Positions 15,825 to 59,999 of a stretch of 60,525 nucleotides of DNA are shown here, one piece after another. Source of the stretch: an uncultured virus (IMG/VR IMGVR_UViG_3300022753_000048) (taxonomy: Duplodnaviria > Heunggongvirae > Uroviricota > Caudoviricetes). The notes below the pieces were generated by a model, which saw only the letters and a program-made list of their open reading frames with translations, was not told where the DNA came from and made no database searches. The DNA lies in the IMG/VR virus record IMGVR_UViG_3300022753_000048, positions 62,001 through 122,525 of that record. One strand, 5' to 3'. The translations under genes and the position numbers were made by a program. Position 1 is the first letter of the stretch; each line of letters opens with the position of its first letter.

Positions 15825-15841
15825 TAAGTAAATAAGAATTT

Positions 15842-40320: not shown

Positions 40321-40697
40321 TGTTCTGTTTTTATAATGCGAATCCTCGTGGACGTCATGTAAATGATTGCACTGTCCGTGCGATATCCAAAGCAACAAAC
40401 AGAAGCTGGGATGAAAACTACCGAGAGCTAAGTCATTATGCTTAGTTACTATGTATAATGCCTGATGATGTAACCTATATAGATGAATATCTAGATACAC
40501 ACTTTGAAAAAATATATTTATGCAAGAAATGTCGTCTAACGATAAGAGAGTTTGTGGAACACAACCCACTTGGAACCTTCTTGATAACGATGAACGGTCA
40601 TATAACTTGCGTTATTGACGGAGTGATATATGATACCTTCGACCCTTCTAATAGGTTCATTTGGGGTGTTTATAAAGTAAAAGAGGGAGTCTTATGA
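40317..40697 (+). CDS. papain-like (C39-like) cysteine peptidase (1 TAG); gene 6 of the operon
   Basis: YNANPRGRHVNDCTVRAIS...YA*LLC...GHITCVIDGVIYDTFD gives Cys-His-Asp in catalytic order; ATGA-coupled start; TAG at 40443. Confidence 0.65.
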
Positions 40698-40712
40698 CTC
40701 CCTCAATTTTTA
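40683..40712. terminator. terminator at the convergence of the plus and minus arms
   Basis: GAGGGAGTC-TTAT-GACTCCCTC with A and T runs on the flanks. Confidence 0.7.
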
Positions 40713-41438
40713 TTCCCAATTTACAACTTCTATATTGTATAAATCGGCAACATATTTGCCTATACCAATTGCGTCCGCTTCGTCATCACTTACTGTGATA
40801 TCATGCCATTCTTTGGCTTTATTTTGCATTGAGCGTTTCTTATCGATGCGAGTTCTTCCTGTAACGCCACAGTGGTGGCGCCAGGTATTGGTTGGGCAAA
40901 CTGTGTATTCTATTTTCTTTTCGTAACAGGTTTCCATTAAGATTCCCTGTAAACGAGCCAATGCTTGGAATACAGTGACTGAGGCTTTTTGTCCAGATAC
41001 CTCGTCTTGATATTGGATTCCTTCCAGTCCAATAGCGTCTGGCTACCAGCTTTCAATCATTGATAACATCCAATTTTTTATTGTGCTATCGCGTGCGATT
41101 TCATCTTTTAGATTAGTAGTAAAAGTTCCATATCGTATCAGTTTATTTCCATCATATATAGACCAGCCACAGGTATGTGTTGCCTAGTCAATAGCTAAGA
41201 TTCGTTTCTTTCCTTTAGGTTTTGATTCTACAGTTAATACTTTTTCTTTTAGCTTGTTGTCTTTACATCTTGGGCATTCGCGCTTTGAGCGTATCTTTTT
41301 CCATGTTGCTTGAATAGTATGACCTTCATCACATTCAAATTCAAGTGGTGTATCGAGATTTTGATAAGTTTCGGAGACACATTTCCAACCGGTTTCTTTT
41401 AATTCTTCATTGATAGATTCAATGGTTATGCGAGCCAT
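40710..41438 (-). CDS. RuvC-like Holliday junction resolvase with N-terminal Zn-binding domain (2 TAG)
   Basis: Fragments 41184-41438 and 40710-40961 fuse: ILAID*ATHTCGWS, IGLEGI, LARLQG, DDEADAIGIG; N-terminal CDEGH...CPRC. Confidence 0.85.
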
Positions 41439-41755
41439 TAATCCACCACCTTGACGCCAAACATTTTTTCTATATCTGCTTTTTTAACTTTTGGTTCTGA
41501 TTTACCTAAAGCTATAATATAGAACAAGACATCTCCTTCCTTAGTAAGAGATTGGTTAAGTTTAACTTCTCTTACAGTATAGGGTTTGTCGCACCAAAGC
41601 AGATAAGGATTATAGCTTTCTTCATCAATACTAATTGCAGTCGTAGCTCTTGGGCAATAAATCAGATAGGGCTTATCTTCATCAGTACGAACAAAAACTG
41701 CGGTAGTAAAGTAACCTTTATCAGTAGGATGCGGCCATGTAAAAGCTGCATCCAC
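41438..41755 (-). CDS. hypothetical protein
   Basis: Probable GTG start at 41755, just after the dUTPase stop (ORF track start 41815 overlaps dut); TAATG coupling to the resolvase. Confidence 0.6.
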   Translation of the reverse strand: MDAAFTWPHPTDKGYFTTAVFVRTDEDKPYLIYCPRATTAISIDEESYNPYLLWCDKPYTVREVKLNQSLTKEGDVLFYIIALGKSEPKVKKADIEKMFGVKVVD

Positions 41756-41759
41756 TTTC

Positions 41760-42701
41760 TTAATTCTTTCCTGAACTTCCAAAGCCGCCACCTCTGTCTT
41801 CACCAATTCCATCAACAGATTGGACTTGATAGAAATTTACAGTTGGAACTTCGACCAAACGCATCTGCGCAAAACGTTCACCTTTTCCTATATAGTATGG
41901 CTTACCATGCTCAATAGATGTAATAACGGGGCGGCCTCTATCATCAAATTCATAAGAAATGTCTTTGATAGGAGGCTCAATATTTTCAACAATGACACCA
42001 ATGACACCTTTGTACTGAGAGTCTACAAGTCCAATGGAGTTTGCAACTCTGAGCTTTGTCTTAGCGCTGGTTCCGCTGCGAGGATGGATAAGAAAGGCAT
42101 AACCATAAGGTAAAGCTACTTTTATATCACAAGGAATAATAACGGTCTCACCAGGATTGATAGTATAATCTGCAGGAGAATATAGGTCAACTGCGCCATC
42201 TCCCAAATGAGCGTATTTAGGCATCTTTGCATTTTCGCTTGTTAATTCGATAGGAACGTTAATTACTCTTTTTGCAATTCCTTCTGCATCGGCAATACAA
42301 TTATAAGTAATACCAAGCATCTGTTTTAAGAAATCGCGCTTAGGAGCAGAAAGAACTTCGGCAAACTGTTTGTCAATATTTTCAATCAACTTCATATATG
42401 CTTCTTGCAATTCTTCCAACTTTGTACCATTTAAATTCATTGCTTGAACCAATAGCAACTTGTCGTCAATATTATTCATTGACTTTTGCATCTCATCTAA
42501 GAAGATTGGCGCGATAAGAGCAAAGTGCTCATCGGGCATTGCTAACAAAGCGCCAAGTTCCTCGAAGCCACCGAGAGAAGGATTGATTTTTTCAATCTCA
42601 TTCATTAGTGCTTCAAAGGTACTTTTTCTTTCTTGAGATGCTTCTTGCATTTTATTTGTCATTTCTGCCGCAGCTTTTTGTGCTGCGGCAGGGGTATTCA
42701 T
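41760..42701 (-). CDS. dut: trimeric dUTPase with long N-terminal extension
   Basis: Motifs GAVDL, PRSG, GLVDSQYKG, RFAQ and RGGGFGSSG. Confidence 0.9.
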   Translation of the reverse strand: MNTPAAAQKAAAEMTNKMQEASQERKSTFEALMNEIEKINPSLGGFEELGALLAMPDEHFALIAPIFLDEMQKSMNNIDDKLLLVQAMNLNGTKLEELQEAYMKLIENIDKQFAEVLSAPKRDFLKQMLGITYNCIADAEGIAKRVINVPIELTSENAKMPKYAHLGDGAVDLYSPADYTINPGETVIIPCDIKVALPYGYAFLIHPRSGTSAKTKLRVANSIGLVDSQYKGVIGVIVENIEPPIKDISYEFDDRGRPVITSIEHGKPYYIGKGERFAQMRLVEVPTVNFYQVQSVDGIGEDRGGGFGSSGKN

Positions 42702-42702
42702 A

Positions 42703-42927
42703 TTAATTATCTAGGCCATCCCAGAAACCTCCATAAACTTTGACGACTTTCACAAGATAGCCGTCGTCAATTATGTCTCCTTTAGACTTCTTTTCCTTTT
42801 TAGTATAAGCGAAAGAATTAAGAATGTAGCCTTGTTTTCTTGCTTCTTCCTTGAAGTCTTCATTCATTTGCTTTGCTTCTTCCTCAGATTCCGCACGGTA
42901 TTCTGCGGTGACTTTTAATAATCTCAT
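42703..42927 (-). CDS. hypothetical protein
   Basis: 74 aa, ATGA-coupled. Confidence 0.7.
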   Translation of the reverse strand: MRLLKVTAEYRAESEEEAKQMNEDFKEEARKQGYILNSFAYTKKEKKSKGDIIDDGYLVKVVKVYGGFWDGLDN

Positions 42928-43541
42928 ATACCGCGCAACTCCTTTGCTAGATTAGTGAAAGGAGTATCTTCAACAGCCTTCTTTGCGCCATTTACATTGG
43001 TGCTACTAATGGGATTGGTAAACATAGAAACAGGGTCAAACTTACCATTTAGAATAGCGTCAACAGTTTTTGCCAGTTCGTCCAGGTTAAAGACCATTCC
43101 ATTGCTTTCGCAAGTTTTAGCGGGAGCTTCCTTAGATGCTACTTTTTCAGTTTCAGTTTCAGTTTCAGAGGCCTTGTCTGCACTAGAACAAACATCAACC
43201 TTGATTACATTGGAGGGAGCAATCGCGGCTTTGGCTGATGTAGCAATACTGTTATCGCAGACACCAGTGATAGAAGTACTATCACAAAGGGTTGCAGTGC
43301 TGGCAATACCATCCACGGTATTGGAGCGCAGAAGACTACCGTTATCGCAGGTCACGGTACCATAATAGGGGGTATTGGTAACAGTAATACTAGGAGAGGT
43401 CCAAGTCCAATAATTGCTCTTGGCATGGTTTTCACCATCAGTATAACCTTCACGATAAGTTTCGTTCAACAGCTTTTCCAGTTCACAACGAGTGAACTCA
43501 ATCTTACCTGCTCTGTTAGTTTTAAATACTTTTACACTCAT
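42924..43541 (-). CDS. hypothetical protein with Ser/Thr-rich low-complexity centre
   Basis: 205 aa, AAGGAG RBS. Confidence 0.7.
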   Translation of the reverse strand: MSVKVFKTNRAGKIEFTRCELEKLLNETYREGYTDGENHAKSNYWTWTSPSITVTNTPYYGTVTCDNGSLLRSNTVDGIASTATLCDSTSITGVCDNSIATSAKAAIAPSNVIKVDVCSSADKASETETETEKVASKEAPAKTCESNGMVFNLDELAKTVDAILNGKFDPVSMFTNPISSTNVNGAKKAVEDTPFTNLAKELRGI

Positions 43542-43546
43542 TTTAA

Positions 43547-44224
43547 TTACTCCTTTGCTTCGTCAGCTTTTTCTTCATAACAAATCAGTTCTTTTGCATA
43601 GGGAAGAGTTTCAATCCACTTACAGAAAGCTCTCCATTCAGGAAGACGATGATTACGTCTCTGGCGCCAGATATTCTTTAGACAACGATAATTAGTTGTC
43701 AGACGGGCAGTTAGCATAAAGCCCGCAGGATTAGAATATAGAATCTCAAGATATTTCTGAGTAATTAGCTTCTTTAGACGCTCTCTATTGTATTCATCAT
43801 CAATAGGAGTTTGCGCTAATTCAGCAAGTAGCTTATTATGCTGAACTACCTTTTCCTCCATAATCTCAATGATTCGAGGGTCAACATACTCATTATACTG
43901 ATTACGCAAGTCAAACTTGGTAATACGATGCATGGTAGACTGACTAGAAACAAATTCCAAGAATCTGTAACGCTCTGCTTCTACCCAAGCCTTATTAGTA
44001 AAGGTTAGGTCAAAAGAAACTCGAATACCAGTTAGGAACTGGTCATGTGCGCCCTGCCAATCAGCGGCATGGGAAAGATTGGTACCACGCTTTAATTCTG
44101 ACTCACGAGTTTCTTCCCATTCAGTAGAAGTTCTCATGGGATAGCCAGCAGCGTGGAAGCACTCATCCAAATCATAAATTCTTATGTTGGAAACAATATT
44201 GTTAGAAGGTAATTTTAGTTCCAT
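43547..44224 (-). CDS. ThyX/Thy1-like protein
   Basis: AWVEAERYRF..VSSQSTMH and NYRCLKNIWRQRRNHRLPEW resemble divergent phage Thy1-fold proteins; nucleotide-metabolism context; RBS favours ATG 44224. Confidence 0.6.
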   Translation of the reverse strand: MELKLPSNNIVSNIRIYDLDECFHAAGYPMRTSTEWEETRESELKRGTNLSHAADWQGAHDQFLTGIRVSFDLTFTNKAWVEAERYRFLEFVSSQSTMHRITKFDLRNQYNEYVDPRIIEIMEEKVVQHNKLLAELAQTPIDDEYNRERLKKLITQKYLEILYSNPAGFMLTARLTTNYRCLKNIWRQRRNHRLPEWRAFCKWIETLPYAKELICYEEKADEAKE

Positions 44225-44256
44225 TAAATTCTCCTTTTCTCTCATTTTCTATATAT

Positions 44257-44285
44257 ATTATATCATAAATTTACCACTTTTTCAA
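44257..44285 (-). promoter_or_regulatory. sigmaA-like promoter
   Basis: TTGAAA-17 nt-TATAAT with extended -10 TG. Confidence 0.7.
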
Positions 44286-44288
44286 ATT

Positions 44289-44543
44289 TTAATCACAGAA
44301 ACATTCGGCATCATCTTCAGCGTTATTTGTATTGTAAGCCTCCCTCATGCCGGCAATATATCCTAAAGTATACTGATGCTTTAAAGCATCTTGCACATTA
44401 TTCCAACAGGTTGGAAAAAAGGCGGTCAGAATAAATTCAAAACTTAAATCTACGTCAGTGTCGCCTACATTTTTCTTTACAGAAGCAACCATTCTTTCAA
44501 CATCTGAAAGTTTAATTGGCTCAATAGCGATTTTCTGTTCCAT
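44289..44543 (-). CDS. hypothetical protein
   Basis: 84 aa, coupled to nrdG. Confidence 0.7.
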   Translation of the reverse strand: MEQKIAIEPIKLSDVERMVASVKKNVGDTDVDLSFEFILTAFFPTCWNNVQDALKHQYTLGYIAGMREAYNTNNAEDDAECFCD

Positions 44544-45022
44544 TAGTTCTCCTTTAGATTGATAATATTTTGATTAGAGCTTCCGCGCATTTTAAGAGTT
44601 ATATCTCTTAAAGGTTTAACAAAAGGACCATCAATTAAAACATCAACTTCTTTTAAAATCAAAGGTATTTTAGGATCCGGTGATTTTAATAATTCTTCAT
44701 GATAGTAACCAGTCCAAAGATAAATTTTTACTTCTGGTAAATGCTGTTTCACATATTGAATAGTCATTAAAGTTAATAAAGTATTTTGTTCGCATAGCGG
44801 CTCTCCACCCATAATACAAAAACTTCGTTTAATACCATTCTTAGTAAGACCAGCTACTATTTTTCTTAGCACTTCTGGAGTAAATTCCTTACCACCATCA
44901 AAATCCCATGTTTCTGGATTATGACATCCTTCGCAGTGGTGCGGGCACCCCTGTGTGAATAAGGTTACAGACACACCGGGCGCCGCACACATATCATTAT
45001 AATTTATTCCTGCATATCTCAT
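44543..45022 (-). CDS. nrdG: anaerobic ribonucleotide reductase activating enzyme
   Basis: QGCPHHCEGCHNPETW radical-SAM motif, GGEP, DGPF, RGSSNQ; adjacent to nrdD. Confidence 0.95.
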   Translation of the reverse strand: MRYAGINYNDMCAAPGVSVTLFTQGCPHHCEGCHNPETWDFDGGKEFTPEVLRKIVAGLTKNGIKRSFCIMGGEPLCEQNTLLTLMTIQYVKQHLPEVKIYLWTGYYHEELLKSPDPKIPLILKEVDVLIDGPFVKPLRDITLKMRGSSNQNIINLKEN

Positions 45023-47271
45023 TTATGTTTCACCCTATATTTTACTTCATCTTGCTTGCCACGATTGAAAGCGGTGGTATAATTACCAGTTAAATATCCA
45101 GTAACTCTACGTAATTGTTGGATATGTTCACTGCCACACTCGGGACAATGATCATTAAACTCATCGCAATATCCGCACTCTAAACAAGTATCATTAGGAA
45201 CATTTACTGCGAAATAGGGAATATCTTTGTCCATTGCATAGTTAACTAAAGTTTCAAGAGCTTCTAGATTATTTTTAATACCACTATCTAACTCAACATA
45301 GGTAATACAACCAGCAGAAGAATAACCAGTTAACTGTGATTCAATATCAATCTTTTCAAAGGGATTCATTTCCTTCCATACAGGAACGTGCATGGAGTTA
45401 GTAAAGAATTCCTTGTCACTAACATTCTTGATAACACCATAACGCGCCTTGAACTTTTTTAGAGCAGTATGGCAAAGATTTTCTGCAGGAGTGTAATAAA
45501 CACCAAAATTTAGTTTATATTCTTCTTTAAATTCAGCACAACGTTTCTTGAACAAAGCTTCGATTCTTTTTGCTAATTCCATACCCTTTTCTTCAGTATG
45601 GTCGCATCCAATAAGAATCTGTAAAGCTTCAGCCAATCCTAGCTGACCCATTGCAAGAGTACCATGCTTTAAGGCAGAACGAATACCTTCTTCTGGTACA
45701 TAGCCAGCCATTAGACCATTCTCATACATAAAACGAGCGGAGGCAGGATTCTGAGAGCAAATCCAATTAAAACGTTCAATTAACATATCTTTGGCTTCGT
45801 GGATTTTTTCATTTAGAATGGCTAAGAAAATATCTTCAACACTTTCGCCCTGCCCCTCAGCTAACCACTCTTCCTTAGCCATCATGGCCAAAGTAGGCAA
45901 AATAATGGTTACTGGACAGATATTTCCTCGTCCATCCTTTCGCTGACCGAGGCCGTTAATATCGTATCCATTGGCAGTTCTACATCCCATCGTACTGAAA
46001 TAGGTACAGGGGTCATTGATGTCGTATCCATCATTGCCAGTCCAGTCAACATTTGCGTAGTTGGGATACAATCTTTGGGCGGTTGAGCGTAATGCGAGTT
46101 TAAATAAATCGTAATTTGGGTCTTCGGGTTCACGGTTTACTCCTTTCATACACTGGAAGATTCCACATGGGAAAATAGATGTTTTGTGTAATTTACCAAT
46201 ACCTTTAATAGAAACATCAAGTAAAGCCTTGGTAATCATTCTACCTTCTGGCAAAGTACAGGTTCCATAGTTTATAGATGTAAATGGAAGCTGATTACCA
46301 CTACGTGATTGTAAGGTGTTAAGATTGTGGTACATAGCTTCAACTGCTTGATATACTTCACGTTCAGTCATTTCAAGAGCATAGGTCCAAGCTTGTGGAT
46401 GAAGGTCTTTAAATTCGGTATTATTGAAGCAAATGACACCATTTTCACAACCTTCTTTGGTATTTTTTAACCATCTGTCAAAACGTTCTAGTTTATATTC
46501 AGATTTTCCTTCACAATATCTCATGCCATCTTTTAAATGTTTGGTAAAGCTCTTTCTAACATAAGGAACCATAGTCCAATCTAAGTGAGTTGCACTAACT
46601 CCGCCAAACTGCTGTAAGGATTGCAACTGGAAGATAACAGCAACTAACTGGAAAGCTGTACTTATGGATTGAGCTGGACGTACATCAGTCTGTCTTGTAT
46701 TGAAACCTTTAGCCAATAAATCATCAAAGGGAATAGATAAGCAATTATGAGAACCAACGGCATAATGGTCTAAATCATGAATATAAATCATGTTATTCAA
46801 GTGATTTTCTTTAGCCATAGGACTTACAATATAATCAAGCGCATATTTACGTGCAACTGCGCTATTCATTTCACCCATACGGCCACCAAATGAATGTTCA
46901 TCGACATTTGCATTTTGATTCTGAACATTTGCTGCACTTAATTTTTCACCAATGGTGTCCATCAATTCCTTGTAATTATGGCGAGCCATTTCACGCTTAT
47001 AGCGATAACGAATATAAGCTTTCGCCAAATCTGGTTTGGGACCATTGATTAGATTCCATTCTACTAAATCTTGAATCTCTTCAACTGTAATACATTCTAC
47101 AGTATGATATTCAAAATAGTTTTCAATACTTGTAGCAACATTTTCAGAAATATACTTAGAGTAAATATTACCATCTACTTCAAGTAACGCCTTATTGATT
47201 GCACAAATAATTTTATTTCTGTCATAAGGAACTTGAGTTCCATCTCTTTTTACTACAATTACGTTAGTCAT
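45019..47271 (-). CDS. nrdD: class III anaerobic ribonucleoside-triphosphate reductase
   Basis: ATP cone VVKRDG, IYIHDLD, TMGCRT, TPAENL, CxxC..CxxC and RRVTGYL; GGAGG RBS favours ATG 47271; no TAG. Confidence 0.95.
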   Translation of the reverse strand: MTNVIVVKRDGTQVPYDRNKIICAINKALLEVDGNIYSKYISENVATSIENYFEYHTVECITVEEIQDLVEWNLINGPKPDLAKAYIRYRYKREMARHNYKELMDTIGEKLSAANVQNQNANVDEHSFGGRMGEMNSAVARKYALDYIVSPMAKENHLNNMIYIHDLDHYAVGSHNCLSIPFDDLLAKGFNTRQTDVRPAQSISTAFQLVAVIFQLQSLQQFGGVSATHLDWTMVPYVRKSFTKHLKDGMRYCEGKSEYKLERFDRWLKNTKEGCENGVICFNNTEFKDLHPQAWTYALEMTEREVYQAVEAMYHNLNTLQSRSGNQLPFTSINYGTCTLPEGRMITKALLDVSIKGIGKLHKTSIFPCGIFQCMKGVNREPEDPNYDLFKLALRSTAQRLYPNYANVDWTGNDGYDINDPCTYFSTMGCRTANGYDINGLGQRKDGRGNICPVTIILPTLAMMAKEEWLAEGQGESVEDIFLAILNEKIHEAKDMLIERFNWICSQNPASARFMYENGLMAGYVPEEGIRSALKHGTLAMGQLGLAEALQILIGCDHTEEKGMELAKRIEALFKKRCAEFKEEYKLNFGVYYTPAENLCHTALKKFKARYGVIKNVSDKEFFTNSMHVPVWKEMNPFEKIDIESQLTGYSSAGCITYVELDSGIKNNLEALETLVNYAMDKDIPYFAVNVPNDTCLECGYCDEFNDHCPECGSEHIQQLRRVTGYLTGNYTTAFNRGKQDEVKYRVKHK

Positions 47272-47461
47272 TAACATCCTCCAAATGATAGCAGAATTCA
47301 CATTGTCCCTCTACATAATGATGATTACATTTCTTCTGCAAAGATTCAATTTCATTATTAATTCTGACTACTTCTGGATTTAATGTAAACATACCTGGCA
47401 CAGTAGCTTCTTCAAGCTACCAGCGCAATTCATCAATTTTTGCTTTAATCTCTTTTGACAT
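47264..47461 (-). CDS. small Zn-ribbon-like protein (1 TAG), absent from the ORF track
   Basis: GGAGG RBS; MSKEIKAKIDELRW*LEE...KCNHHYVEGQCEFCYH; fills the intergenic gap. Confidence 0.7.
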
Positions 47462-47463
47462 TT

Positions 47464-48594
47464 TCAACCCTCCATCTTGTTGATATAAAATTCATAAAAA
47501 TCTTCAAAGAGTTCAGGTTTCTCTTCTCTGACAAAAGCAAACAGTTCTCGTATTTCTTGTCTGGTCATGGCTTTAGCATAATAGGTTGGCAAGTCATCAT
47601 AAGTAGCTCGCGCGAAGTCAAATAAAGTGTCCTCTCCAATACGCTTAAAATAAGTTGATTGTGGAAGACACCGCATACTATTATGATAAAAATTGAACAA
47701 ATCTAAGACTTTTTCCCATCTACTGTCGATAAAGAAATTTTCCTCATATTTAAGTGAAAAGAAAACCCTATAGCTACGTGCTTTTACAACCTGATGAAAA
47801 ATCCGAACAATATATTTATCAAGAAACTCCTGCTGATTAGCAGAAGAAGCAGTGACATAATAATCTAACTGTTTGTAAACGGCCTTTTCTCTTATATAGC
47901 CGACGAAATCATCGAAAGCATCGTCATCAATAACTCCGTCATATCTAAGAGAATAAAATGTACTATTTGGGCGCAATGAAATCCAATTCAATAAGTCTTG
48001 TCCTTGAGTAACAGTAGGAGGAAATTTCATTCCCACTCTTGTTGCCCAGCCATCAGTTCTGGCGCGAGCCAACAACTTTTTAACTTCTTCAAAACTGCCT
48101 TCGATTTTTCCTAAATCAAAGTCATGTAACATCAAGTTACGAGCAGTTTTTAGAAACTTAAATTGTCTTGGGTAATCTTCCCAAATTGTCTTCCCATCTA
48201 ATGACAATCGGCAATGCTCAGCTTCCATCATGTTTTGAAAAATTTTCTTCTGATCGCGCCCTTTAGAAGCCATAATAGTCTTTTCCATATTTTCATATAT
48301 AGAAGTGTCTGGATGCATAATTTCTATTTCTCTTGGTAGTGGTGCATATATTCCATCTGTAAATGCATAACCACCGTACTCAAGATTGGGAATATTTTCA
48401 AGTCCCATTATAAAGTTTCCATCATCATAGTCTTTTCTTAAAAAGAATTTCTGATGTCGCTCTGGCGTGAAGTAGGGAGATAGTACAACTACCTCCCTCT
48501 TTTTCTTGTAGTAAGCAGAGAGTTTCATCAGTTCTAGATTGAATGGAACTAAAGTATAAGTTGCCATGTCCTAATCATATAAACCAATACTCAT
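47464..48594 (-). CDS. degenerate radical-SAM-related protein (TAG at codon 8)
   Basis: ATGA-coupled to dnaE; MSIGLYD*DMATYTLVPFNLELMKLSAYYK, YGGYAF and LPREIEIMHPDTSIY; no CxxxCxxC. Confidence 0.5.
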
Positions 48595-52580: not shown

Positions 52581-52609
52581 GCATCTACCTCCTCTCAGTT
52601 TATATAAAT

Positions 52610-52638
52610 ATTATATCATAAATTTATATTTTTGTCAA
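52610..52638 (-). promoter_or_regulatory. consensus sigmaA promoter of dnaE
   Basis: TTGACA-17 nt-TATAAT with extended -10 TG. Confidence 0.85.
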
Positions 52639-52922
52639 TTATTGAGCAGTTCGTCTAAACCATGGTTAATTATTCTTTGCTTAATAGTTGGCATGAGAAC
52701 TTCATAGAAAGTTTTTTCATCAAGTTGTTTATCCAAGATTACGTGTGCATAAGCTGCTCCACGTCTAGACTCGGGAAATCCACTTCGAATATGGAATATG
52801 AATAGCTTATTACGTATTTCAGTATATTCTTTTGTCTGGATAGTAGTATCAACTTCCATCATATTGATAATTGTGTGATACCATCTAGTAATTCTATCTG
52901 TTATAATCAATATCTTAATCAT
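52635..52922 (-). CDS. hypothetical protein
   Basis: 95 aa ORF within the replication arm. Confidence 0.6.
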   Translation of the reverse strand: MIKILIITDRITRWYHTIINMMEVDTTIQTKEYTEIRNKLFIFHIRSGFPESRRGAAYAHVILDKQLDEKTFYEVLMPTIKQRIINHGLDELLNN

Positions 52923-53075
52923 TCAGACTCCCATTATTTTAACGGCTCGTTCTATATGCCAAATCGTATAGAGATACCACATTCCATCTTTATCTGCAAT
53001 AAGAGGGATAATAGGAAAGGGGCTTTCTGCTATTACTTTAGGTATATCATATATGTAATTAGAATCCAAGCGCAT
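52923..53075 (-). CDS. small hypothetical protein (50 aa)
   Basis: MRLDSNYIYDIPKVIAESPF...KIMGV fills the gap between the RecJ-like gene and the 52922 ORF; GAGGTG upstream. Confidence 0.4.
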   Translation of the reverse strand: MRLDSNYIYDIPKVIAESPFPIIPLIADKDGMWYLYTIWHIERAVKIMGV

Positions 53076-54816
53076 TATCCTTCACCTCAATATCTTCAAT
53101 AAAAATCTGAGGAGTTACTCTTCCGCCCCATTCATTCAAATTGGCACGACCAACAACTTCTATCTTCATGTCGGGATGCTTATTTAATTCTTCAATCAAA
53201 TCTTTTGCATGGAACTTCATATAAGCGATACCAAATTTCTCAAATTTTACAGTATCCTTATTTTTACCCATAATTTGAACATCACTTGCAGAAATGTTAA
53301 TATCTGTTACATGGATCAAAGGTTCTGGATTTTGCTGCCCCCAAATGCCACCATGTGCCCCAATATCATGAATAATATCTGCTAAATCATCATCAGCGGC
53401 AATTCTATCAAAATTTACATCATAGCAGTTTTCACCAAAATCAATTCCAATAAGAGCCTCATTTGCCCACTTGTGGAAATCAGTTAAATGAGAATTAGGG
53501 ATAGAACAACCAGCCGCATTGTCATGACCTTGGACATATTCAAACATTCCGCTTTCAGTTAAGAAATCTTTAAAAGAAACCAATTCACTTTGATTCAATC
53601 CGCGCATAGACCCACGATTAAAGCCTTGCTCATTCAGTCGTGCAACAATAGTGGGACGCTTGAATTTGGCGCTTAACTTCATAGCTAGTAGACCATTTAA
53701 TTCCGAGGGGAATGTATCTTCTTCGTCCAGACGAACAAACAAAATTCTGTTTTCCAACAAATCATACTTATGAATTTTGATTTCAGTTCTATCCATAGCG
53801 GTTTCCAAAGATTTATTTTGACGATTGCGCGCGTTGCTACATTCACGTGCGGCTTCAACACCAGCTCTTTCCATAGTTCCCTTCGCTCCACGCTTGCCAC
53901 TAGGAATCATTTTATCGCCATCTAAGAAAGCTTCAAACAGTCGACACTTTTCATCCATGGTGCCAACACGAATCATCGCATTGACCAGAGGGACAATGTA
54001 AAAAGCTACGCTAATGGGATTCATAGCGTCAATCAGCTGTTGTTTGCTAGGACTCATCGCACCAGTAATAGAATAAGCCTGCTTCTCCATGAGCGCCCAT
54101 AGCAACTTGTTATTAATATTCTTTAATCCTTCCTTTACGATATAACGATTTTCCAACTCAAGCATAGAACCCATATCGCCAATGATACCCCAGGCTGCTA
54201 AGTCCATATACTTGTCAGCAAAAGACTTGCCCAACTTTAAATCAAGATAACGGCAGAACTGATATACAACTCCTGCGCCGGTCAATTCCTTGTTCTTATA
54301 TCGAGGAGAAAGCTGGTTGTTAATAACTACGGCATTTTCACTTAGTTCTGTATCTGTAATGTGATGGTCAAGAACTAAAACAGAAGTACCCAAGTCACTC
54401 AATTGTTCATGATAAACATAATCATTACTAGAAGAGTCGGGTAGAATGATTAACCCGTAATGTTCTCCGCCCTCTGTTAAATTCTTAATATGATCTTGCA
54501 GGCCATGCTATTTACCTTCATGTAAAATATAATCAATCTTGCAATCGGGCATTAAATCTCTCAGATAATTATACATGATAGTAGCAGAAGTAAAACCATC
54601 ATTATCAGAGTCAACAACAATCAGAATTTTCTCATCCTGCGCAAGTACTCCTATGAGCAGGTTGGCGCCTCGCTCTACATTTTCTAAATCAGTGGGAGGT
54701 TGTAGGAACTCTCTGCCAGGATTGTAATAATCTTCTGGATTTTCAATACCACGAGCCTTCAAAAGTGAATCTACATAATCTTTCTTAAAGTTTGTGTTAA
54801 TCAGTTTGGTCTTCAT
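53059..54816 (-). CDS. recJ: RecJ-like DHH ssDNA exonuclease (single TAG at 54508-54510)
   Basis: Fragments fuse: VDSDNDG, HEGK*HGL, LPDS, LDHH, GAGV, RGSMR and GHDNAAG; 585 aa. Confidence 0.88.
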
Positions 54817-55865
54817 TTAACAATTACCCTCTTATCTAATAGTTTCAAGAAAATTTCTTCTCCTTTATCTGTAGGAGAATCCTTTAAATCAAGCAAACCT
54901 TCCCTATCATAGATAAAAGAGAAGTTGCAATAATTTTTATATTTTTGACAGATATTCCATAATTTGTTGAAATACTTATCCTCTCCAGGAAGCTCTTCTT
55001 TATCAAAGCACAAAACAATATGCGCTGGATGGCAATGCCTCATAAGAATGTTTAATTGATATTTATTAAAATTACTTCCACATACTGCCGCAGAACAATT
55101 TGGTATTGAGAAGCCTTCCATCTGTAAAACAGACTTTTCACTTTCAAATAAAAAACAAATTCCGCTTTCTTTAATATCAAATTCTGTCATATGTAAGCCA
55201 TAAAGGTTCATAGAAAGTGGATGTTTGTACCAAGTATTTTCAATGCGTATTGGTGCATACTTACCAACATTTTCTACTTCCCACTCATTCAATGCGCGAC
55301 CTCTAATTCCAACAAGACGGCCATCAATATCATAATGAGGAATAATAATTTTATTCTGAGAAATAGAATAGGAAATATCAAAATCATCCATAGCTTCTTT
55401 TGTTATACCATCGTTCAACCATTCTGGAGGATAATATTTAACAAAACAATCTAACACATTTGGCGAATATTCTGGAAGTTGAACTTCTTTTCGTACGACA
55501 GAATAGCGCTCTTTTAAACTCTTATAAACTGGTTTAATAAATCCTTCTTTTTGCTTAAAAGAAGAACAATTACAAACCACTTCATAGATATCTTGATACC
55601 AGTCGTATTCTATCTGCCTTTCTTCGTAATAAGTACGAAGAAATTTAAAAATAGACATACTTCCACATTCTGTATAACAAACGAACATCTTGTTCTTTTT
55701 GTAAAAATATAATTTCATTGACGCTTCACTAGATTCCAAATTATGACAGATGGTGGGAAAGATTACAAAATCTTCCCTATCATCGTACCTGTCGGCGCCA
55801 AGTTCTGTCATCAAATGAATTATAGAATCGGTATTTAAATTAGAGATTATCTCAGCATAATCCAT
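54813..55865 (-). CDS. DNA primase (Zn-binding domain plus TOPRIM)
   Basis: ICHN...CYTEC, IIIPH..GIRGR, LFESEKS, LCFD and KDSP. Confidence 0.85.
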   Translation of the reverse strand: MDYAEIISNLNTDSIIHLMTELGADRYDDREDFVIFPTICHNLESSEASMKLYFYKKNKMFVCYTECGSMSIFKFLRTYYEERQIEYDWYQDIYEVVCNCSSFKQKEGFIKPVYKSLKERYSVVRKEVQLPEYSPNVLDCFVKYYPPEWLNDGITKEAMDDFDISYSISQNKIIIPHYDIDGRLVGIRGRALNEWEVENVGKYAPIRIENTWYKHPLSMNLYGLHMTEFDIKESGICFLFESEKSVLQMEGFSIPNCSAAVCGSNFNKYQLNILMRHCHPAHIVLCFDKEELPGEDKYFNKLWNICQKYKNYCNFSFIYDREGLLDLKDSPTDKGEEIFLKLLDKRVIVK

Positions 55866-57411
55866 TTAGCCAATCAACCTTTCTTTTAATTTCAATCAGT
55901 TCATCGCTTTCAAAATCACTGATATTATATTCATCACCAGTACTAAAATCATTGATAACAACCAAACGAGAATCAGTTAAAAACAAATCATCTCGCTTCA
56001 TTGTACCCAAATCAACAATAGACCAAATACGTACTTGTGTCCACTCACCACTTCGAACTTTAAAAATATCAGTTACCAGATTTGGCTTACCATGAACAGC
56101 AATAATTGGTTCGAGAGTTTCTAACTCTTCCTTAGTAGGACGAGCCATAATCGCACCATTATCTGCTTTGTTAATTGTTGAACGACCACCGGCCAGAGAA
56201 GATTCATTCCTAATATTTATGTTATTATCCACATTTGCATTAACCTGTGTAGAAGTAAAAACACAGACATCCAATTCAACAGCCAAATCCTTTAAGGCGG
56301 TTGCCATCATCAATAGAACTTCATCATTACGGACACCAAAACCACGGAACTCGTTAAGAAGCGCAGGTCCAATAAAGATGTAGTCATAAAATACATAACC
56401 AATATCATGCAACAAAACTTTTTCGCGTACTTTGGTTTTTACTAAATCAATAGTTGGATTAGGAATACGAATCAGAATAAAATTATCTGCATAATCCTTC
56501 ATAATCTGTTTACCTTGCGCGATTCGTTTCTTTTCTTCTTCAGTAAAACGTCCGTACTTAAACTTAGATTCATTTATATCAGTTAAGTATGCCAAAATCA
56601 TTTTTTTAATCTGAATATCAGTCTGCTCTGTGATAATAAACAAAATTCGCTGATTGTTGCCTTTTTGTTCCCAAGAAGCAGTTTTGCTATTGTATCTTAT
56701 AGGAAAAGCAAGAATACAAGCGTCTGCTACAGCATTTCTTGTTTTACCAGTACCACTCGCACCAGAGCGAATGGTCAGACAAGAACGCTGTGCTCCATCA
56801 ATAATTCTACTGAAAATAAAACCTTGAATTGGAAGTCCAACACTTCCTTCTGCGCCGAAAGATTCGACAAGCTCGTCAATATCATCACCGATATTCCATT
56901 CTTGAACTTCTTCAGTGCCCGCATAATCAGATTCCAAAACCAACAATCTCTTCTTAACCGCAGTAATAATATCGCTGATGGTTAGTTCTTCAAACCGCTG
57001 ATTAATTTCCATTGCATTCGCCGCAGTTAAATCTTCTTGATAAAATTCACTTACGGGAAAGTTCTGTTTCTTTAAATCCCTGAGCAAATTCAGTTTCTTT
57101 AGTTTGGTATAATAATAAGGAAAGTTCTCTATATTAGAGAACTCTTCAATATCTTGCAAATACTCAAGACCATTCTGCTGTTCATATAATTTCTTTGCCG
57201 CATCATTAGCTTCAAGATAACTTTCAATATCTAAAGCCGTAATCTTTTGCGCGCCACTACGCCATAAACCATTTATAGCATTGAAAATATATTTCTCGAA
57301 CTTAGTTGAAAAGTCTGAGATAGACAAGCTATACTTATCAACCTCACTTAAAAACTGAGGGTGTTTCATCAGAGAACCAAGAACCTGCTGAATGGTTCCC
57401 TTGTTTGTCAT
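55852..57411 (-). CDS. replicative DnaB-like helicase
   Basis: Walker A GASGTGKT, ITEQ, FYDYI, STQVN, KAD and KVR. Confidence 0.88.
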   Translation of the reverse strand: MTNKGTIQQVLGSLMKHPQFLSEVDKYSLSISDFSTKFEKYIFNAINGLWRSGAQKITALDIESYLEANDAAKKLYEQQNGLEYLQDIEEFSNIENFPYYYTKLKKLNLLRDLKKQNFPVSEFYQEDLTAANAMEINQRFEELTISDIITAVKKRLLVLESDYAGTEEVQEWNIGDDIDELVESFGAEGSVGLPIQGFIFSRIIDGAQRSCLTIRSGASGTGKTRNAVADACILAFPIRYNSKTASWEQKGNNQRILFIITEQTDIQIKKMILAYLTDINESKFKYGRFTEEEKKRIAQGKQIMKDYADNFILIRIPNPTIDLVKTKVREKVLLHDIGYVFYDYIFIGPALLNEFRGFGVRNDEVLLMMATALKDLAVELDVCVFTSTQVNANVDNNINIRNESSLAGGRSTINKADNGAIMARPTKEELETLEPIIAVHGKPNLVTDIFKVRSGEWTQVRIWSIVDLGTMKRDDLFLTDSRLVVINDFSTGDEYNISDFESDELIEIKRKVDWLNGLC

Positions 57412-57995
57412 TCATCGTCCTCCATATCTACTTCTGCTAACATCTCTGCCGCAGTTTTTACTTGCCGCTTTTTTCTCTTCATCTTTACTTCAATAATATT
57501 TTGGTTCTGAAATTGACGAATCTGTTCTTCAATTGCGGCAACGATATTCTTATCTCTTTGGTTTCTTTCTCCCCAATAAGCTGTTGCATCTTCATATATA
57601 TGTGGAACAATTCCAATGCCGCCTTCGCTCTTGTCGACTAAGCCACCACATATTTCATAAAAATATCTAACAGTAAAATAGATACCTTTGGGTGTACGTC
57701 CATCCCTTTCTACAAATTTCTTCCACTGAGAATTAAATCTTTTATAATCAAGACTAATTTTTAAATCTCTTTTAAGATAATCTTGTACAGCAGTTTTCCA
57801 TACAACTTCATCTGCCTCAAGTTCTATTCCCTCTTTTCCAATTTGTCCTTTTTTCTTAGCAAAATCTTCATAGCATTTTTTATGGTAATAGAATCTTTTA
57901 ACTGGTTGTACCCAATAAACTCCTTCTACTAAATCTGGGTCCAATCTGTTAAATTTTTGTTTACAAACTCGACACTCAACCATAGCTTTTGCCAT
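57408..57995 (-). CDS. Zn-binding protein upstream of the helicase (possible loader/initiator)
   Basis: CRVC...HKKC; ATGA-coupled to the helicase; own promoter. Confidence 0.5.
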   Translation of the reverse strand: MAKAMVECRVCKQKFNRLDPDLVEGVYWVQPVKRFYYHKKCYEDFAKKKGQIGKEGIELEADEVVWKTAVQDYLKRDLKISLDYKRFNSQWKKFVERDGRTPKGIYFTVRYFYEICGGLVDKSEGGIGIVPHIYEDATAYWGERNQRDKNIVAAIEEQIRQFQNQNIIEVKMKRKKRQVKTAAEMLAEVDMEDDE

Positions 57996-58034
57996 TAATC
58001 GCACCACCTTTTCTAGCCTTATTTTCCTACATAT

Positions 58035-58063
58035 ATTATATCATATTTTTTGTAAAAAGTCAA
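58035..58063 (-). promoter_or_regulatory. sigmaA-like promoter of the helicase-primase operon
   Basis: TTGACT-17 nt-TATAAT with extended -10 TG. Confidence 0.75.
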
Positions 58064-58068
58064 ATTAG

Positions 58069-58097
58069 AAAAAGCCACCCTTGAAACCAAGGGTGGC
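58069..58097 (-). terminator. rho-independent terminator
   Basis: GCCACCCTTG/CAAGGGTGGC stem followed by TTTTT on the minus strand. Confidence 0.75.
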
Positions 58098-58110
58098 GTA
58101 ATTAAAAGGA

Positions 58111-59073
58111 TTAGTCCTTTAACATATCTCTCATATCAAGAACAACAAGGTTAAACAAATCAACCTGGTCTTCTGTGATTTCAGACAGCTTCATGGGACG
58201 ACCAAAAATAATCTCAACCTTTTTCAAGATAACAGGAGCATTTTCGGGGTCTTTCTCCACAAGGACAGTCCACAATTCAGAGGCTTCCGCGCGAATTGCT
58301 TTATAATCCAATTTCTCAAATGTATCAAGAGGTGCTGTATCAGTAACAACTGCGCCATTTTCTTGCTCTTTATCGATTGCTTGGCCCAGAGCCTCTAAGA
58401 ACTCATTATAGCCAAATGGAATTCGAGGAGCAAGATATTTATATCTGGAACCTGCAACAATGGTGGGAGTAGAACGAGTCTGAATCCAACGATGACTTTC
58501 ACCATGCTCATCCCAAGTCTGAGTGATGACACCGATAATATCAACCAGGCCATTAACAATCTTTAAGCAACGATTGTTTAAGTCAGGCTTATATCCAGTG
58601 ATTTCACCATTCTCGTCAGAACTTTCCTTTAAGTGGCAAGTCATAATTAGGCCATAACCCATCATAGTAATCTTGCGGAGCGCGCTATCAAATTCCTTGG
58701 ATAGAGCAGCATAACCGCCACCATAAGGGATGTCACCAATCTTTTGCACACCATTCTGGGCGCAAATAAATTGTTCACACAGGTCGTAAGCAATTGCAAC
58801 TGTATCAACACAGATGGTTGAGAACTTGGCTTTTGCTTCTGGTTTTTCCAACTGACGAAGAACTAACTTGAATGTACTCCAAGTATCAATCTTCTGAATC
58901 ATGGCGCCAGGTCTTGCATTGGTACCAATCTCAAATGCCAACACTAAAGCATCAGGCGCCATAGTACAAAATTCAGTTTTACCAATCTTAGGTGCGCCAG
59001 CCAGGAGCAGGTATTTCGAGCGTAAATCTCTCGAAATAACCTACGGCTGAATGGCTAAAATATCAATAGCCAT
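58111..59073 (-). CDS. Sak4-like (AAA_24) ATPase/recombinase (TAG at codon 11)
   Basis: GGAGG RBS then MAIDILAIQP*VISRDLRSKYLLLAGAPKIGKT restores the Walker A motif missing from the ORF-track call; ICVDT Walker B; adjacent to SSB. Confidence 0.8.
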
Positions 59074-59087
59074 TTACGTTACCTCCA

Positions 59088-59999
59088 TTAGAAGCCCAGG
59101 TCAGCCATAGACTTCTTTGCGGCCTTAGGAGCAGTCTTGCTTTCCTTAGCCTTCTGCTTTGCCTTCAGTTCAGCCAAACGAGCCTGACGATCTTCCAAAG
59201 CGCTATGGATTTCATCCATATCAAAGGCAAAGTCACCCTCCAAAGGAGTCTGAGAACCACCAGTGATAATCAGCTCGCTGACAGAAATAGTCTTTCTCTC
59301 AATACGAGGCTCACCGAAGTCGACCTCAACCATCTTCTCCTCAGTCTTAGAGGTAAAGTTCAGCTTACCATTAATCTTAACGGTATCGCCCTGCTCCCAG
59401 TAAGAAGAAACAGCATCAATAACGTTAGGACTGGTAGCGAAGAAATCAATTACATCAACGATACCGCCGTACTGAGGCATGATACCACGAATCTTATAGC
59501 GATTGGGAATTTCCACGCCATCCTTATCGGTTTCATAACCCATGCTACCAACTGCAAAAATAACAGAGAAAGTAGCTTCAGGGGTGAACTTACTCAAATC
59601 GGTAATCTTGGTTACGAAAGAAGCATTGATACGGGGGTAAGAGTTCAGATTACCAGTCTGGCCGTAATATTCATTCATACGAATCTGCGCGCCAGTAATA
59701 CGAACACGGTCTGCGGCATCGATACCAACTGCAGCGATACTCTTATACTCGTTCATTACGCGCTCAATAGAAGCGTAAGCAGGATTAGCAGTACCCTTAT
59801 TAGTCAGCTTATTGGCAAACATATATACAGGGATATCCAGTTCGGATTCCTCGCCATTCAGCATCTGAGTAACACGAACCTTGATGGAACCGCCAATCTT
59901 TTCGACAGACTTACCATCTTTCATATAACTACCTGTCTCCAGGTCAATCTCGGACAGAATACCCTCAATCTTTACAGAATTTTCCTTAGACTCTAGCAT
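59088..59999 (-). CDS. single-stranded DNA-binding protein (OB-fold type)
   Basis: ENSVKIEGIL start, GDTVKINGKL, C-terminal DLGF tail, strong codon bias, next to the Sak4-like gene. Confidence 0.6.
   Translation of the reverse strand: MLESKENSVKIEGILSEIDLETGSYMKDGKSVEKIGGSIKVRVTQMLNGEESELDIPVYMFANKLTNKGTANPAYASIERVMNEYKSIAAVGIDAADRVRITGAQIRMNEYYGQTGNLNSYPRINASFVTKITDLSKFTPEATFSVIFAVGSMGYETDKDGVEIPNRYKIRGIMPQYGGIVDVIDFFATSPNVIDAVSSYWEQGDTVKINGKLNFTSKTEEKMVEVDFGEPRIERKTISVSELIITGGSQTPLEGDFAFDMDEIHSALEDRQARLAELKAKQKAKESKTAPKAAKKSMADLGF

Follow-up and report, generated by a model that had tools for sequence, protein, structure and literature searches.

Recoding of a stop codon is thought to hold back the late and lysis genes of phages, an idea that has so far been based on coarse maps of whole modules; does recoding also divide neighbouring genes within one replication module? 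The question is raised by a stretch of DNA of 60,525 nucleotides, here called the window, which makes up positions 62001-122525, the right half, of one viral contig of 122,525 bp (IMG/VR record IMGVR_UViG_3300022753_000048, an uncultured virus of the Caudoviricetes, referred to below as G000). Window and contig coordinates differ, and positions are those of the window unless the contig is named. The minus-strand arm of the window (40710-59999) carries genes of replication and nucleotide metabolism, some with in-frame TAG codons and others with none. A first-pass annotation, made from the letters alone, had taken the TAGs of its recombination genes for gate codons that time recombination-dependent replication. 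We found that the TAG split is conserved by gene in every recoded relative examined and in the distant phage phAss-1, and that it lies between genes that share predicted operons.

Genetic code and genes of the replication arm

Under the standard code the plus-strand arm of the window was fragmented, and long genes emerged once TAG was read through. With this read-through the large terminase (3 TAG), the portal (3 TAG), a tape measure of 2840 amino acids (aa; 58 TAG), Dit and tail proteins matched known families, and the full-length family matches of terminase, portal and tape measure, like those of RecJ, RuvC and Sak4 in the replication arm, require it. The contig contains 36 tRNA genes (ARAGORN), all outside the window, and among them is a tRNA(cta) with anticodon CUA at contig 15442-15516. 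When the TAG sites of relatives were aligned with G000, glutamine (Gln) stood at 22 of 52 distinct sites, against a background of 3.4% Gln, and Glu, Lys and Asp came next. Because of this tRNA(CUA) and of the TAGs aligned to Gln, the phage is, as judged from sequence, a code-15 phage (TAG = Gln). The likeness of tRNA(CUA) to the phage's own tRNAs was not decisive for its amino-acid identity, as it shares 49 of 75 bases with tRNA-Gln(UUG) and 52 with tRNA-Leu(UAA). None of the 20 open reading frames (ORFs) of the arm and none of 167 called greedily on the contig ended with TAG; these calls stop at TAA or TGA by construction, and the ends agree with those of homologues. No gene for a release factor or an aminoacyl-tRNA synthetase was seen among the 69 left-arm ORFs of at least 95 aa in a PHROG scan, shorter ORFs being outside that scan.

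The minus-strand arm comprises 20 ORFs with TAG as Gln. Those on which the argument rests, and the gene at the arm head, are as follows.

40710..41438, minus strand: RuvC-like Holliday-junction resolvase with an N-terminal Zn-ribbon domain (PHROG 159/827, E 1e-20), the final gene of its predicted operon; TAG at codon 85 (41184-41186, right after GAC = Asp84) and codon 132 (41043-41045)
41760..42701, minus strand: dUTPase (Pfam dUTPase 62 bits, PHROG 135); TAG-free
43547..44245, minus strand: 232-aa protein, first annotated as ThyX-like (PHROG 6721, function unknown); TAG-free
44543..45022, minus strand: NrdG activase (Pfam Fer4_12, 132 bits); TAG-free
45019..47271, minus strand: NrdD anaerobic ribonucleotide reductase (Pfam NRDD, 495 bits; ATG with GGAGG upstream); TAG-free
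47264..47461, minus strand: 65-aa Cys/His-rich ORF with a ribosome-binding site and no family match; TAG at codon 15 (47417-47419)
47464..48594, minus strand: 376-aa protein with a radical-SAM/B12-like fold in its structural model; TAG at codon 8 (48571-48573)
48591..52580, minus strand: DnaE-type DNA polymerase III alpha, 1329 codons (Pfam and PHROG); TAG-free
53059..54816, minus strand: RecJ-like DHH exonuclease (PHROG 2484, E 7e-152), the last large gene of its predicted operon; TAG at codon 103 (54508-54510)
54813..55865, minus strand: DNA primase (PHROG 47); TAG-free
55852..57411, minus strand: DnaB-like helicase (Pfam DnaB_C and DnaB); TAG-free
57408..58007, minus strand: 199-aa protein (u199), first in its operon (PHROG 4680, function unknown); TAG-free
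58111..59073, minus strand: Sak4-like ATPase (Pfam AAA_24, 126 bits against a cut-off of 27; PHROG 124, E 4e-44); TAG at codon 11 (59041-59043)
59088..59999, minus strand: 303-aa protein, first annotated as a single-stranded DNA-binding protein (SSB; PHROG 2367, function unknown); TAG-free
60087-60341, minus strand: 84-aa winged-helix gene at the arm head

The six in-frame TAGs of the arm stand at exactly the codons that the first-pass annotation had given, and DnaE, NrdD, NrdG, DnaB, primase and dUTPase have none, as it had also stated. Its names SSB and ThyX-like found no support in any library: neither identity gave a match in Pfam (to E 0.1), NCBIfam (to 0.01), the PHROG functional families or the PDB sequences (to E 1). 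The same six TAGs were present in near-copies from other metagenome records (L001, L035, L040 and L041, G and L numbers denoting parent records and loci of relatives), 99-100% identical over the genes compared, and are thus not assembly errors. Sak4 and the 376-aa protein have N-termini (MAIDIL... and MS[IY]GLYD..., respectively) that are conserved in the family, standard-code members included, so that the TAGs of both genes are internal. Two extra TAGs in the longest ORFs of nrdD and dUTPase lie upstream of the real starts, as indicated by the ribosome-binding site and the agreeing starts of homologues.

The codon 11 TAG of the Sak4-like gene lies upstream of the Walker A motif GAPKIGKT, which is readable in the sequence. 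The RecJ-like protein scored 54 bits for DHH (cut-off 28), 44 bits for RecJ_OB (27) and 19 bits for DHHA1 (below its cut-off of 25.9); its TAG103 precedes D150-H151-H152, which is invariant in the RecJ alignment, and follows DSDNDG, the first motif of the DHH family. The RuvC-like protein reached 34.6 bits with the NCBIfam RuvC equivalog (cut-off 163) and had no Pfam match; Asp84, in the motif LAIDQ, is conserved in all five genomes aligned and is the single catalytic residue that was mapped. Its Zn-ribbon (residues 6-68) resembles the N-terminal parts of HNH endonuclease PHROGs. TAG85 lies where the RuvC core begins, and in the standard code (table 11) the stretch 41184-41438 therefore gives a separate 84-aa Zn-ribbon ORF.

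Within this genome the TAG-bearing arm genes had 6 TAG against 50 CAA/CAG codons and the remaining arm genes 0 against 159 (Fisher p = 0.00025, with a post hoc grouping). The classes of the first-pass annotation, likewise chosen after seeing the data, gave 4/36 against 0/138 (p = 0.0023). Could six TAGs simply have happened to miss the replisome genes? The classes were picked after looking, and with six events DnaE alone would be empty with a probability of ~0.2; against this, the emptiness of all named replisome and deoxynucleotide (dNTP) genes has p ~0.004. The evidence from this single genome is moderate and strong support must come from relatives, since in one genome an empty DnaE is that probable. 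As described below, the relatives refute chance, the split being replicated in four recoded genomes and phAss-1, and we regard it as extremely unlikely.

Conservation of the split in recoded relatives

Scans of viral contigs with RecJ gave 39 loci and with RuvC 4, and the RecJ alignment gave 45 further loci, taken from the best 80 of 200 confirmed stretches. A terminase search in 19 parent records served to judge their code. The terminase contained in-frame TAGs in G006 (12), G007 (4), G011 (14) and G012 (8), which are hence recoded, and had no in-frame stop in 10 records (G001-G003, G008-G010, G013, G016, G017 and G019); G005, G015 and G018 had split genes with TGA or TAA at insert borders, and among the 19 records G004 and G014 gave no terminase match. 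The near clade of G000 consists of the fragments L002-L005, L013, L042 and L043 (66-92% identity), which have in-frame TAGs. The four near-copies named above were left out of all counts.

The gene classes were then fixed from G000 (RuvC, RecJ, Sak4, 376-aa gene and 65-aa ORF versus the TAG-free arm genes), and TAG was counted against CAA/CAG in genomes outside that sample (Fisher test; first class against second, each as TAG/CAA+CAG).

G006: 18/30 against 5/114, p 1.4e-7
G007: 9/50 against 1/103, p 5e-4
G011: 15/38 against 1/88, p 1.1e-6
G012: 11/43 against 0/108, p 2.7e-6
phAss-1 (31% RecJ identity): 6/44 against 1/112, p 0.0036

The relatives thus keep their TAGs in the same genes and not in different random ones, the latter being an outcome that the first-pass annotation had named as refuting its reading. 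The per-gene counts below (TAG/CAA+CAG) cover ten recoded genomes and fragments unless another scope is given.

RuvC-like resolvase: 18/32
376-aa protein: 11/36
RecJ-like exonuclease: 18/122
Sak4-like ATPase: 9/76
dUTPase: 6/50, with TAG only in G006 (2) and L043 (4)
303-aa protein: 1/41
DnaB-like helicase: 2/143
Primase: 1/79 (7 recoded genomes)
u199: 0/58
NrdD: 0/54 (3 recoded genomes)
DnaE: 0/217

Counted over 8 recoded genomes or fragments, DnaE had 0 TAG against 286 CAA/CAG. Among recoded orthologues TAG was carried by 7 of 7 RuvC genes, 6 of 6 of the 376-aa genes (up to 10 per gene) and 8 of 10 RecJ genes. The counts in the individual genomes were the following.

RuvC: G000 2/8, G006 5/5, G007 4/5, G011 4/6, G012 7/2
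376-aa: G000 1/12, G006 6/4, G007 3/9, G011 10/5, G012 4/10
RecJ: G000 1/17, G006 6/11, G007 2/20, G011 1/18, G012 0/20
Sak4 (TAG only): G000 1, G006 1, G007 0, G011 0, G012 0
DnaE: G000 0/50, G006 0/49, G007 0/42, G011 0/28, G012 0/41

In phAss-1 the counts were 6/19 for RecJ, 0/59 for DnaE, 0/28 for NrdD, 0/17 for Sak4 and 0/8 for the RuvC-like gene, and NrdG had one TAG. The orthologues of the 65-aa ORF in L004 and G007 were TAG-free.

In relatives the TAG-bearing set had a TAG fraction of 0.15-0.38, and in 3 of 4 of them no significant difference from late genes was seen. No correlation was found between TAG fraction and protein conservation (Spearman rho -0.32, p 0.34). Mean identity was 62% for DnaE, 57% for RecJ, 54% each for RuvC, DnaB and the 303-aa protein, and 36% (36-37%) for u199, the least conserved. 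The split is thus not one of relaxed constraint, because RecJ is about as conserved as DnaE while the least conserved u199 is TAG-free.

The 376-aa protein, which the first-pass annotation had called radical-SAM-like, was modelled with AlphaFold2 (AF2; mean predicted local distance difference test score 88.6). The top seven VIA-align hits of the model were all radical SAM enzymes, with RimO at Z 11.4 (263 residues, root-mean-square deviation 4.9), MiaB at 11.0, MgmA at 10.4 and AprD4 at 9.8. Foldseek gave nothing at E <= 1e-3, a profile search of PDB sequences nothing significant, and Pfam Radical_SAM no match. The CxxxCxxC cluster motif was absent, as no Cys occurs in the 38 invariant or 18 nearly invariant columns of a 15-sequence alignment; the protein itself has two isolated Cys. 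For want of a conserved cysteine the protein is not classed as a radical SAM enzyme; going by the model, it has the radical SAM fold (B12-type or methylthiotransferase-type) and is not such an enzyme by the defining motif, so that the fold part of the earlier name holds and the enzymatic part does not. The gene always stands immediately behind dnaE and belongs to the most TAG-rich ones of the module (10 TAG in G011).

Two apparent cases of recoding among the relatives were rejected. TGA recoding was suspected in L039/G005 from TGA within the terminase match; its genes are split by inserts of ~0.9-1 kb and the pieces have no in-frame TGA. Single TAGs in DnaE, Sak4 or RecJ of L071, L078, L093, L101 and L104 were found to be gene ends or insert borders in standard-code genomes. 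Such inserts of ~0.9-1 kb split RecJ, Sak4, DnaE or the terminase into two ORFs in the standard-code relatives L039/L088 (G005), L093, L104, G015 and G018, and in G005 RecJ, Sak4 and terminase are all split; introns, inteins or homing-endonuclease inserts are candidates for their nature.

Placement of the TAG sites and the predicted operons that they share

In G000 the six TAGs lie early in their genes, at a mean relative position of 0.227 (permutation among the Gln sites of the same gene, P = 0.0024). In the model of the first-pass annotation, single codons placed for the purpose would hold back RecJ resection, Sak4 annealing and RuvC resolution as a set, and the phage would pass from origin-driven to recombination-dependent replication once the code changes. 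G000 itself agrees with it, as its three genes of recombination type have one or two TAGs each, and further points were found in the near clade, where Sak4 has its TAG within the first 11 codons, at two different sites (codon 11 or 9), in 5 of 5 genomes (G000, L003, L004, L005 and L013). This early TAG of Sak4 is the one suggestive case of a gate; in G006 the only Sak4 TAG is at codon 303. Codon 85 of RuvC, beside the catalytic Asp, is TAG in 5 of 7 orthologues, which is no excess over the gene-wide TAG fraction of 0.46 at Gln sites (binomial ~0.2).

The early bias did not extend to the family. Across 58 distinct TAG sites of the ten recoded genomes and fragments the mean relative position was 0.476, not different from uniform (Kolmogorov-Smirnov (KS) p 0.74), and relatives have up to 6-10 TAGs per gene and not single ones (up to 6 in RecJ). 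The RecJ sites were not conserved: by lineage, the TAG codons are 103; 514; 157 and 494; 263...570; 333; 28 and 295; 34...570; and 52. The placement fits a random choice among Gln sites given the gene-wide TAG fraction. Nor are the three genes a set: TAG is missing from Sak4 in 3 of 9 recoded relatives, from RecJ in 2 of 10, and in phAss-1 from both Sak4 and the RuvC-like gene. TAG is carried most steadily by RuvC and by the 376-aa gene of unknown function, and the latter, the most TAG-rich after RuvC, has no known link to recombination. Two relatives have TAG in dUTPase, a reverse transcriptase and homing endonucleases are rich in it, and DNA ligase and RNase H lack it, so that recombination does not describe the class either. 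The proposal also assumes, for its part, that RecJ works in recombination and not at the fork. A timer of recombination-dependent replication made from gate codons fits G000 and not the family, and we consider it distinctly unlikely.

The recoded lineages are deep (~50-60% protein identity) and their TAG sites have turned over. Because the sites mostly differ between lineages, the TAG pattern was renewed and not simply inherited. Two trees disagree on the number of recoding origins. In the RecJ tree (first 34 full-length loci) the 8 recoded loci lie on one side of a 99% branch, and in the DnaE tree (49 loci) recoded genomes stand in at least three places among standard-code ones, a single clade being rejected by the approximately unbiased (AU) test (p 0.00046). 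The terminases of G016 and G017, the sisters of the G000 clade, are TAG-free.

Promoters, terminators and operon borders were predicted by consensus scans. The contig has 26 sigma-70-type sites with at least 11 of 12 consensus bases against 4.8 +/- 1.9 in dinucleotide-preserving shuffles, and 16 of them have a TG-extended -10 element, against 0.33. The promoter class has the consensus TTGAAA/TTGACA, 17 nt, TGnTATAAT and then a conserved A/T-rich stretch, with one extended sequence common to the copies. The predicted elements of the arm are given below.

60423..60451, minus strand: promoter at the arm head, before the 84-aa winged-helix gene
58074-58097: terminator-like hairpin behind Sak4, just before the next promoter
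58035..58063, minus strand: strong sigma-A-type promoter (11/12, TG-extended -10) heading the u199-DnaB-primase-RecJ operon
52610..52638, minus strand: promoter (12/12, TG-extended) before dnaE
44257..44285, minus strand: same-class promoter at the head of the operon whose last genes are dUTPase and RuvC
40683..40704, both directions: two-way terminator-like hairpin that separates the end of the RuvC gene from the structural arm

A further 11/12 site lies inside nrdD on the opposite strand (45056-45083). The promoter after Sak4 was kept in 6 of 6 relatives checked and that before dnaE in 5 of 6 (12/12 in L003, L004, L005 and L013, 11/12 in G006, none strong in G007), and the promoter at 44257..44285 has counterparts in L043 and G007. 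Ahead of the tRNA array stand two more promoters of this class (contig 14455 and 14681). Most gene junctions of the arm overlap or are spaced by a few bases. As far as the predicted elements indicate, host-type promoters thus very probably drive the co-transcription of TAG-free and TAG-bearing genes, along with that of the suppressor tRNA. As the two classes stand in common operons under a single class of promoter, translation must be the level at which they come to differ in timing or amount, if they do.

The operon map also suggests that TAG might be tolerated only in the last genes of operons, where termination starves nothing downstream, the functional class being incidental. Sak4, RecJ and RuvC each come last among the sizeable genes of a predicted operon, with a terminator-like hairpin after Sak4 and RuvC and a promoter after RecJ, and this gene order is common to standard-code relatives and hence older than recoding. 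The 376-aa gene and the 65-aa ORF, however, carry TAG upstream of nrdD and nrdG in the same predicted operon, and a sigma-like gene with 8 TAGs (described below) is the first behind its promoter. As the borders come from consensus scans only and this is a post hoc reading of four operons, avoidance of polarity appears very unlikely to explain the split.

Some further observations concern the promoter copies and the regions around them. Metagenome contigs break or join at the copies (joints 44272 to 52599 and 44272 to 58031), which suggests that the promoter repeats are long enough to confuse assemblers. Upstream of the tRNA array are two promoter-led, G+C-rich, ORF-free stretches (contig 14484-15146) with no Rfam match. 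Inside the array, at contig 21328-21999, 26039-26550 and 16311-16437 (L065), are a ROOL RNA (296 bits), a GOLLD RNA (152.8 bits, slightly over its gathering score of 150) and a drum RNA.

Megablast gave no DNA-level match among deposited phages. The closest named relatives of the RecJ-like protein were those of Geobacillus virus E3 (37%) and the SPbeta group (YorK, 35%), over 98-99% of the length, and phAss-1 stood at 31.6%. These RecJ relatives and the TG-extended -10 promoters point to a host among the Bacillota, as read from sequence. Near-identical DNA was present in metagenome runs of animal faeces and sheep. When contigs of four runs were compared over the arm, three runs were near-identical and the fourth was a mosaic, more divergent strain. 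A sheep-metagenome strain (run X11), compared with the window at 56216-58978 and 42905-46373, had 4-6 differences per 1.3-1.9 kb in parts and 4-7% elsewhere, which suggests mosaic exchange within the replication module.

A proposed translational sub-division of the replication operons

The explanation towards which we lean, if only slightly, is that selection acts on the class of a gene and not on particular gate codons, and that the second class is delayed or lower-dosed through translation. It starts from what was observed, namely the gene-level split and its conservation, the common promoters, TAG = Gln and tRNA(CUA), and it would add early termination at TAG by release factor 1 (RF1), a suppression that rises over time and a benefit of delay or lower dose to the phage. 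The replication and nucleotide-metabolism module would be made of about four tight operons, each behind the same kind of strong sigma-A-like promoter that also stands before the tRNA array. Selection would exclude TAG from genes that need unmodified host translation, or bulk, namely DnaE, DnaB, primase, NrdD/NrdG and the 199-aa and 303-aa proteins, and elsewhere DNA ligase and RNase H. The second class, mainly of DNA-cutting and DNA-processing enzymes, would tolerate TAG: the RuvC-like and RecJ-like proteins and the protein with the radical SAM fold, and less steadily Sak4 and dUTPase. Host RF1 would stop ribosomes at the TAGs of the common mRNA until tRNA(CUA) accumulates and out-competes it, and the second class would be made later or in smaller amounts than the replisome, which would amount to a translational sub-division of the early operon. 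Delay and lower dose are not separable here, nor are a useful and a merely tolerated TAG. What stands of the interpretation in the first-pass annotation is that the host code suffices to read the replisome and dNTP genes and that a set of DNA-processing genes needs TAG suppression; the gate codons, the recombination class and timing as the sole cause found no support.

Several findings weigh against this sub-division. As the tRNA array is under the same promoter class as the replication operons, suppression may begin almost at once and the delay may be short. The TAG-free nrdD and nrdG follow the 376-aa gene and the 65-aa ORF in one predicted operon, and early termination in the latter two should weaken translational coupling to nrdD and nrdG. 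In the 376-aa gene itself an in-frame ATG at codon 10 follows the TAG at codon 8, and re-initiation could occur there, so that the block would be leaky. The class is not fixed, as RecJ is TAG-free in L004 and G012, Sak4 in G007, G011, G012 and phAss-1 and the RuvC-like gene in phAss-1, and as DnaB, primase and the 303-aa protein have TAG in one or two relatives each. Finally, three virion genes on the plus strand, those of the likely major capsid protein (10725-11777), of the 192-aa protein just before it and of the major tail protein (14964-15824), have no TAG in any of the five recoded genomes. Because these capsid and tail genes are late, timing is not the sole cause of TAG avoidance, and the need for a high yield is most simply taken as an additional cause.

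The TAG-free virion genes (10128-11777 and 14964-15824) sit among TAG-dense late genes; a G+C-rich hairpin with a T run follows both the capsid gene (11778-11843) and the tail gene (15825-15946). Over the whole structural arm (2702-37311) ~153 TAG were counted against 331 CAA/CAG, the replisome and dNTP genes having 0 TAG. Outside the replication arm the TAG-rich genes include a reverse transcriptase (12 TAG, contig 1138-2331), GIY-YIG and HNH homing endonucleases (7, 5, 4 and 8) and tail-fibre-like genes, and the TAG-free ones include DNA ligase, RNase H, a dNMP kinase, a Ro-like RNA-binding protein and NMN adenylyltransferase. Most GIY-YIG paralogues of the left arm are TAG-rich (7, 5 and 4), and one copy is TAG-free (contig 17742-18485).

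These findings also bear on a neutral explanation, in which the suppressor is active from the start of infection and TAG drifts from CAG and CAA in low-demand or dispensable genes and is purged elsewhere, with no regulatory use. It would account for the turnover of the sites and their seemingly random distribution over the Gln positions, for TAG fractions in relatives that reach the level of late genes, for lineages that lost or never gained TAG in RecJ or Sak4, for a tRNA array under the early promoter class and for the TAG-free abundant virion proteins, which a cost-of-yield model predicts. It does not readily account for DnaE (0 against 286), primase (1 against 79) and u199 (0 against 58), which are not obviously in high demand and yet are kept TAG-free, or for RecJ and RuvC, which are as conserved as the replisome genes and so are not decaying accessory genes; the same split, moreover, recurs in lineages separated by the DnaE tree. 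Neutral tolerance is, in our judgement, on the doubtful side.

The structural arm begins with two features that suggest a wider use of the code switch.

2600-2629, plus strand: promoter (12/12, TG-extended) before the sigma-like gene, at the head of the structural arm
2702..4036, plus strand: sigma-factor-like gene with 8 in-frame TAGs (PHROG 5767, E 2.5e-14 only; no Pfam or NCBIfam match)

In five recoded genomes the sigma-like gene has 8, 2, 4, 8 and 9 TAGs, and its codon 333 is TAG in 4 of 5. On the coding strand of the structural arm no strong host-type promoter was found by consensus scan; only 8 intergenic gaps there are of at least 25 nt, too few for a late-promoter motif search. The sigma-like gene may be the step that couples the code switch to late transcription. 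Carried further, the code switch would be a master clock, in which the number of TAGs per gene sets its turn-on time. At injection, a single host-type promoter class would start the early operons, the tRNA array and the sigma-like gene alike. With the accumulation of tRNA(CUA), genes with one or two TAGs would be the first to reach useful output inside the early mRNAs, forming a 'middle' class of Sak4, RecJ, the 376-aa gene and RuvC. The sigma-like factor, with its 8 read-throughs, would come last and would then activate the structural arm, which is without strong host-type promoters. TAG85 would give the RuvC gene two products: the host code would yield the 84-aa Zn-ribbon protein, and the complete resolvase would follow the switch. 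This extended scheme is rather unlikely in our estimation.

Among the closest known systems is that of Borges et al. (preprint 10.1101/2021.08.26.457843), which, in the portions of the preprint at hand, combines a suppressor tRNA and stop-dense genes for structure and lysis with a replication machinery that is in standard code or 'variably' recoded; a homing endonuclease is preferentially recoded there and integrases avoid recoding. The present phage resembles that system in a standard-code host, a phage suppressor tRNA, stop-dense structural genes and a replication machinery compatible with the standard code. The proposed order is also the same, standard-code genes first and recoded genes after the switch, and homing endonucleases are recoded here too. 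It differs in that the replication module is split gene by gene within operons and this is conserved in relatives, whereas the same portions of the preprint do not mention recombination, RecJ or a resolvase, and in that the most abundant virion proteins are TAG-free here.

According to the available part of its description (PMC10607447), phAss-1 (OQ749652.1), of a proposed Phassvirus group that comprises code-15 gut phages, resembles the contig in size (136 kb against 122.5 kb), 36 tRNA genes, a tRNA-Sup-CTA, TAG = Gln and replication genes that include DnaE, NrdD/NrdG, RecJ and Sak4. It differs in gene order, has 31-39% protein identity and has a TAG-free Sak4 and RuvC-like gene and one TAG in NrdG. 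Replisome and DNA-processing genes are not contrasted in that part of the paper. Two tRNA-Sup-CTA genes of phAss-1 (L064 15009-15174) stand immediately upstream of nrdD, within its replication and nucleotide-metabolism module. The SPbeta-type replication module of Bacillus phages, in which YorK is accompanied by other yor genes, shares the RecJ-like exonuclease (YorK, 35% identity), and its matches and those of Geobacillus virus E3 differ in showing no sign of in-frame stops (single tblastn pieces, several with one named exonuclease coding sequence). In the accessible text on theta ribozymes beside phage suppressor tRNAs (PMC10879173), the concentration of mature tRNA-Sup is proposed to set the moment of the code switch. 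The explanation given here likewise needs a rising suppressor concentration, and the genes concerned are late lysis and structural ones there and replication modules here. A full-text literature search, which excluded supplements and the journal version of Borges et al., found no description of a conserved TAG split inside replication modules.

The split described here runs between neighbouring, often overlapping genes of the same operons. Because it survives the turnover of TAG sites and recurs in lineages separated by the polymerase tree, it is what selection on translational class would produce, and since both classes are carried on one mRNA, a difference in their output cannot come from transcription. 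If timing or dose is indeed affected, recoding would be a general means to sub-divide operons, in particular to keep DNA-cutting enzymes low while replication starts, and not only a lock on lysis. The TAG-free genes of recoded phages are candidates for functions needed at once or in bulk, and TAG-rich genes of unknown function, such as that of the 376-aa protein, candidates for late functions.

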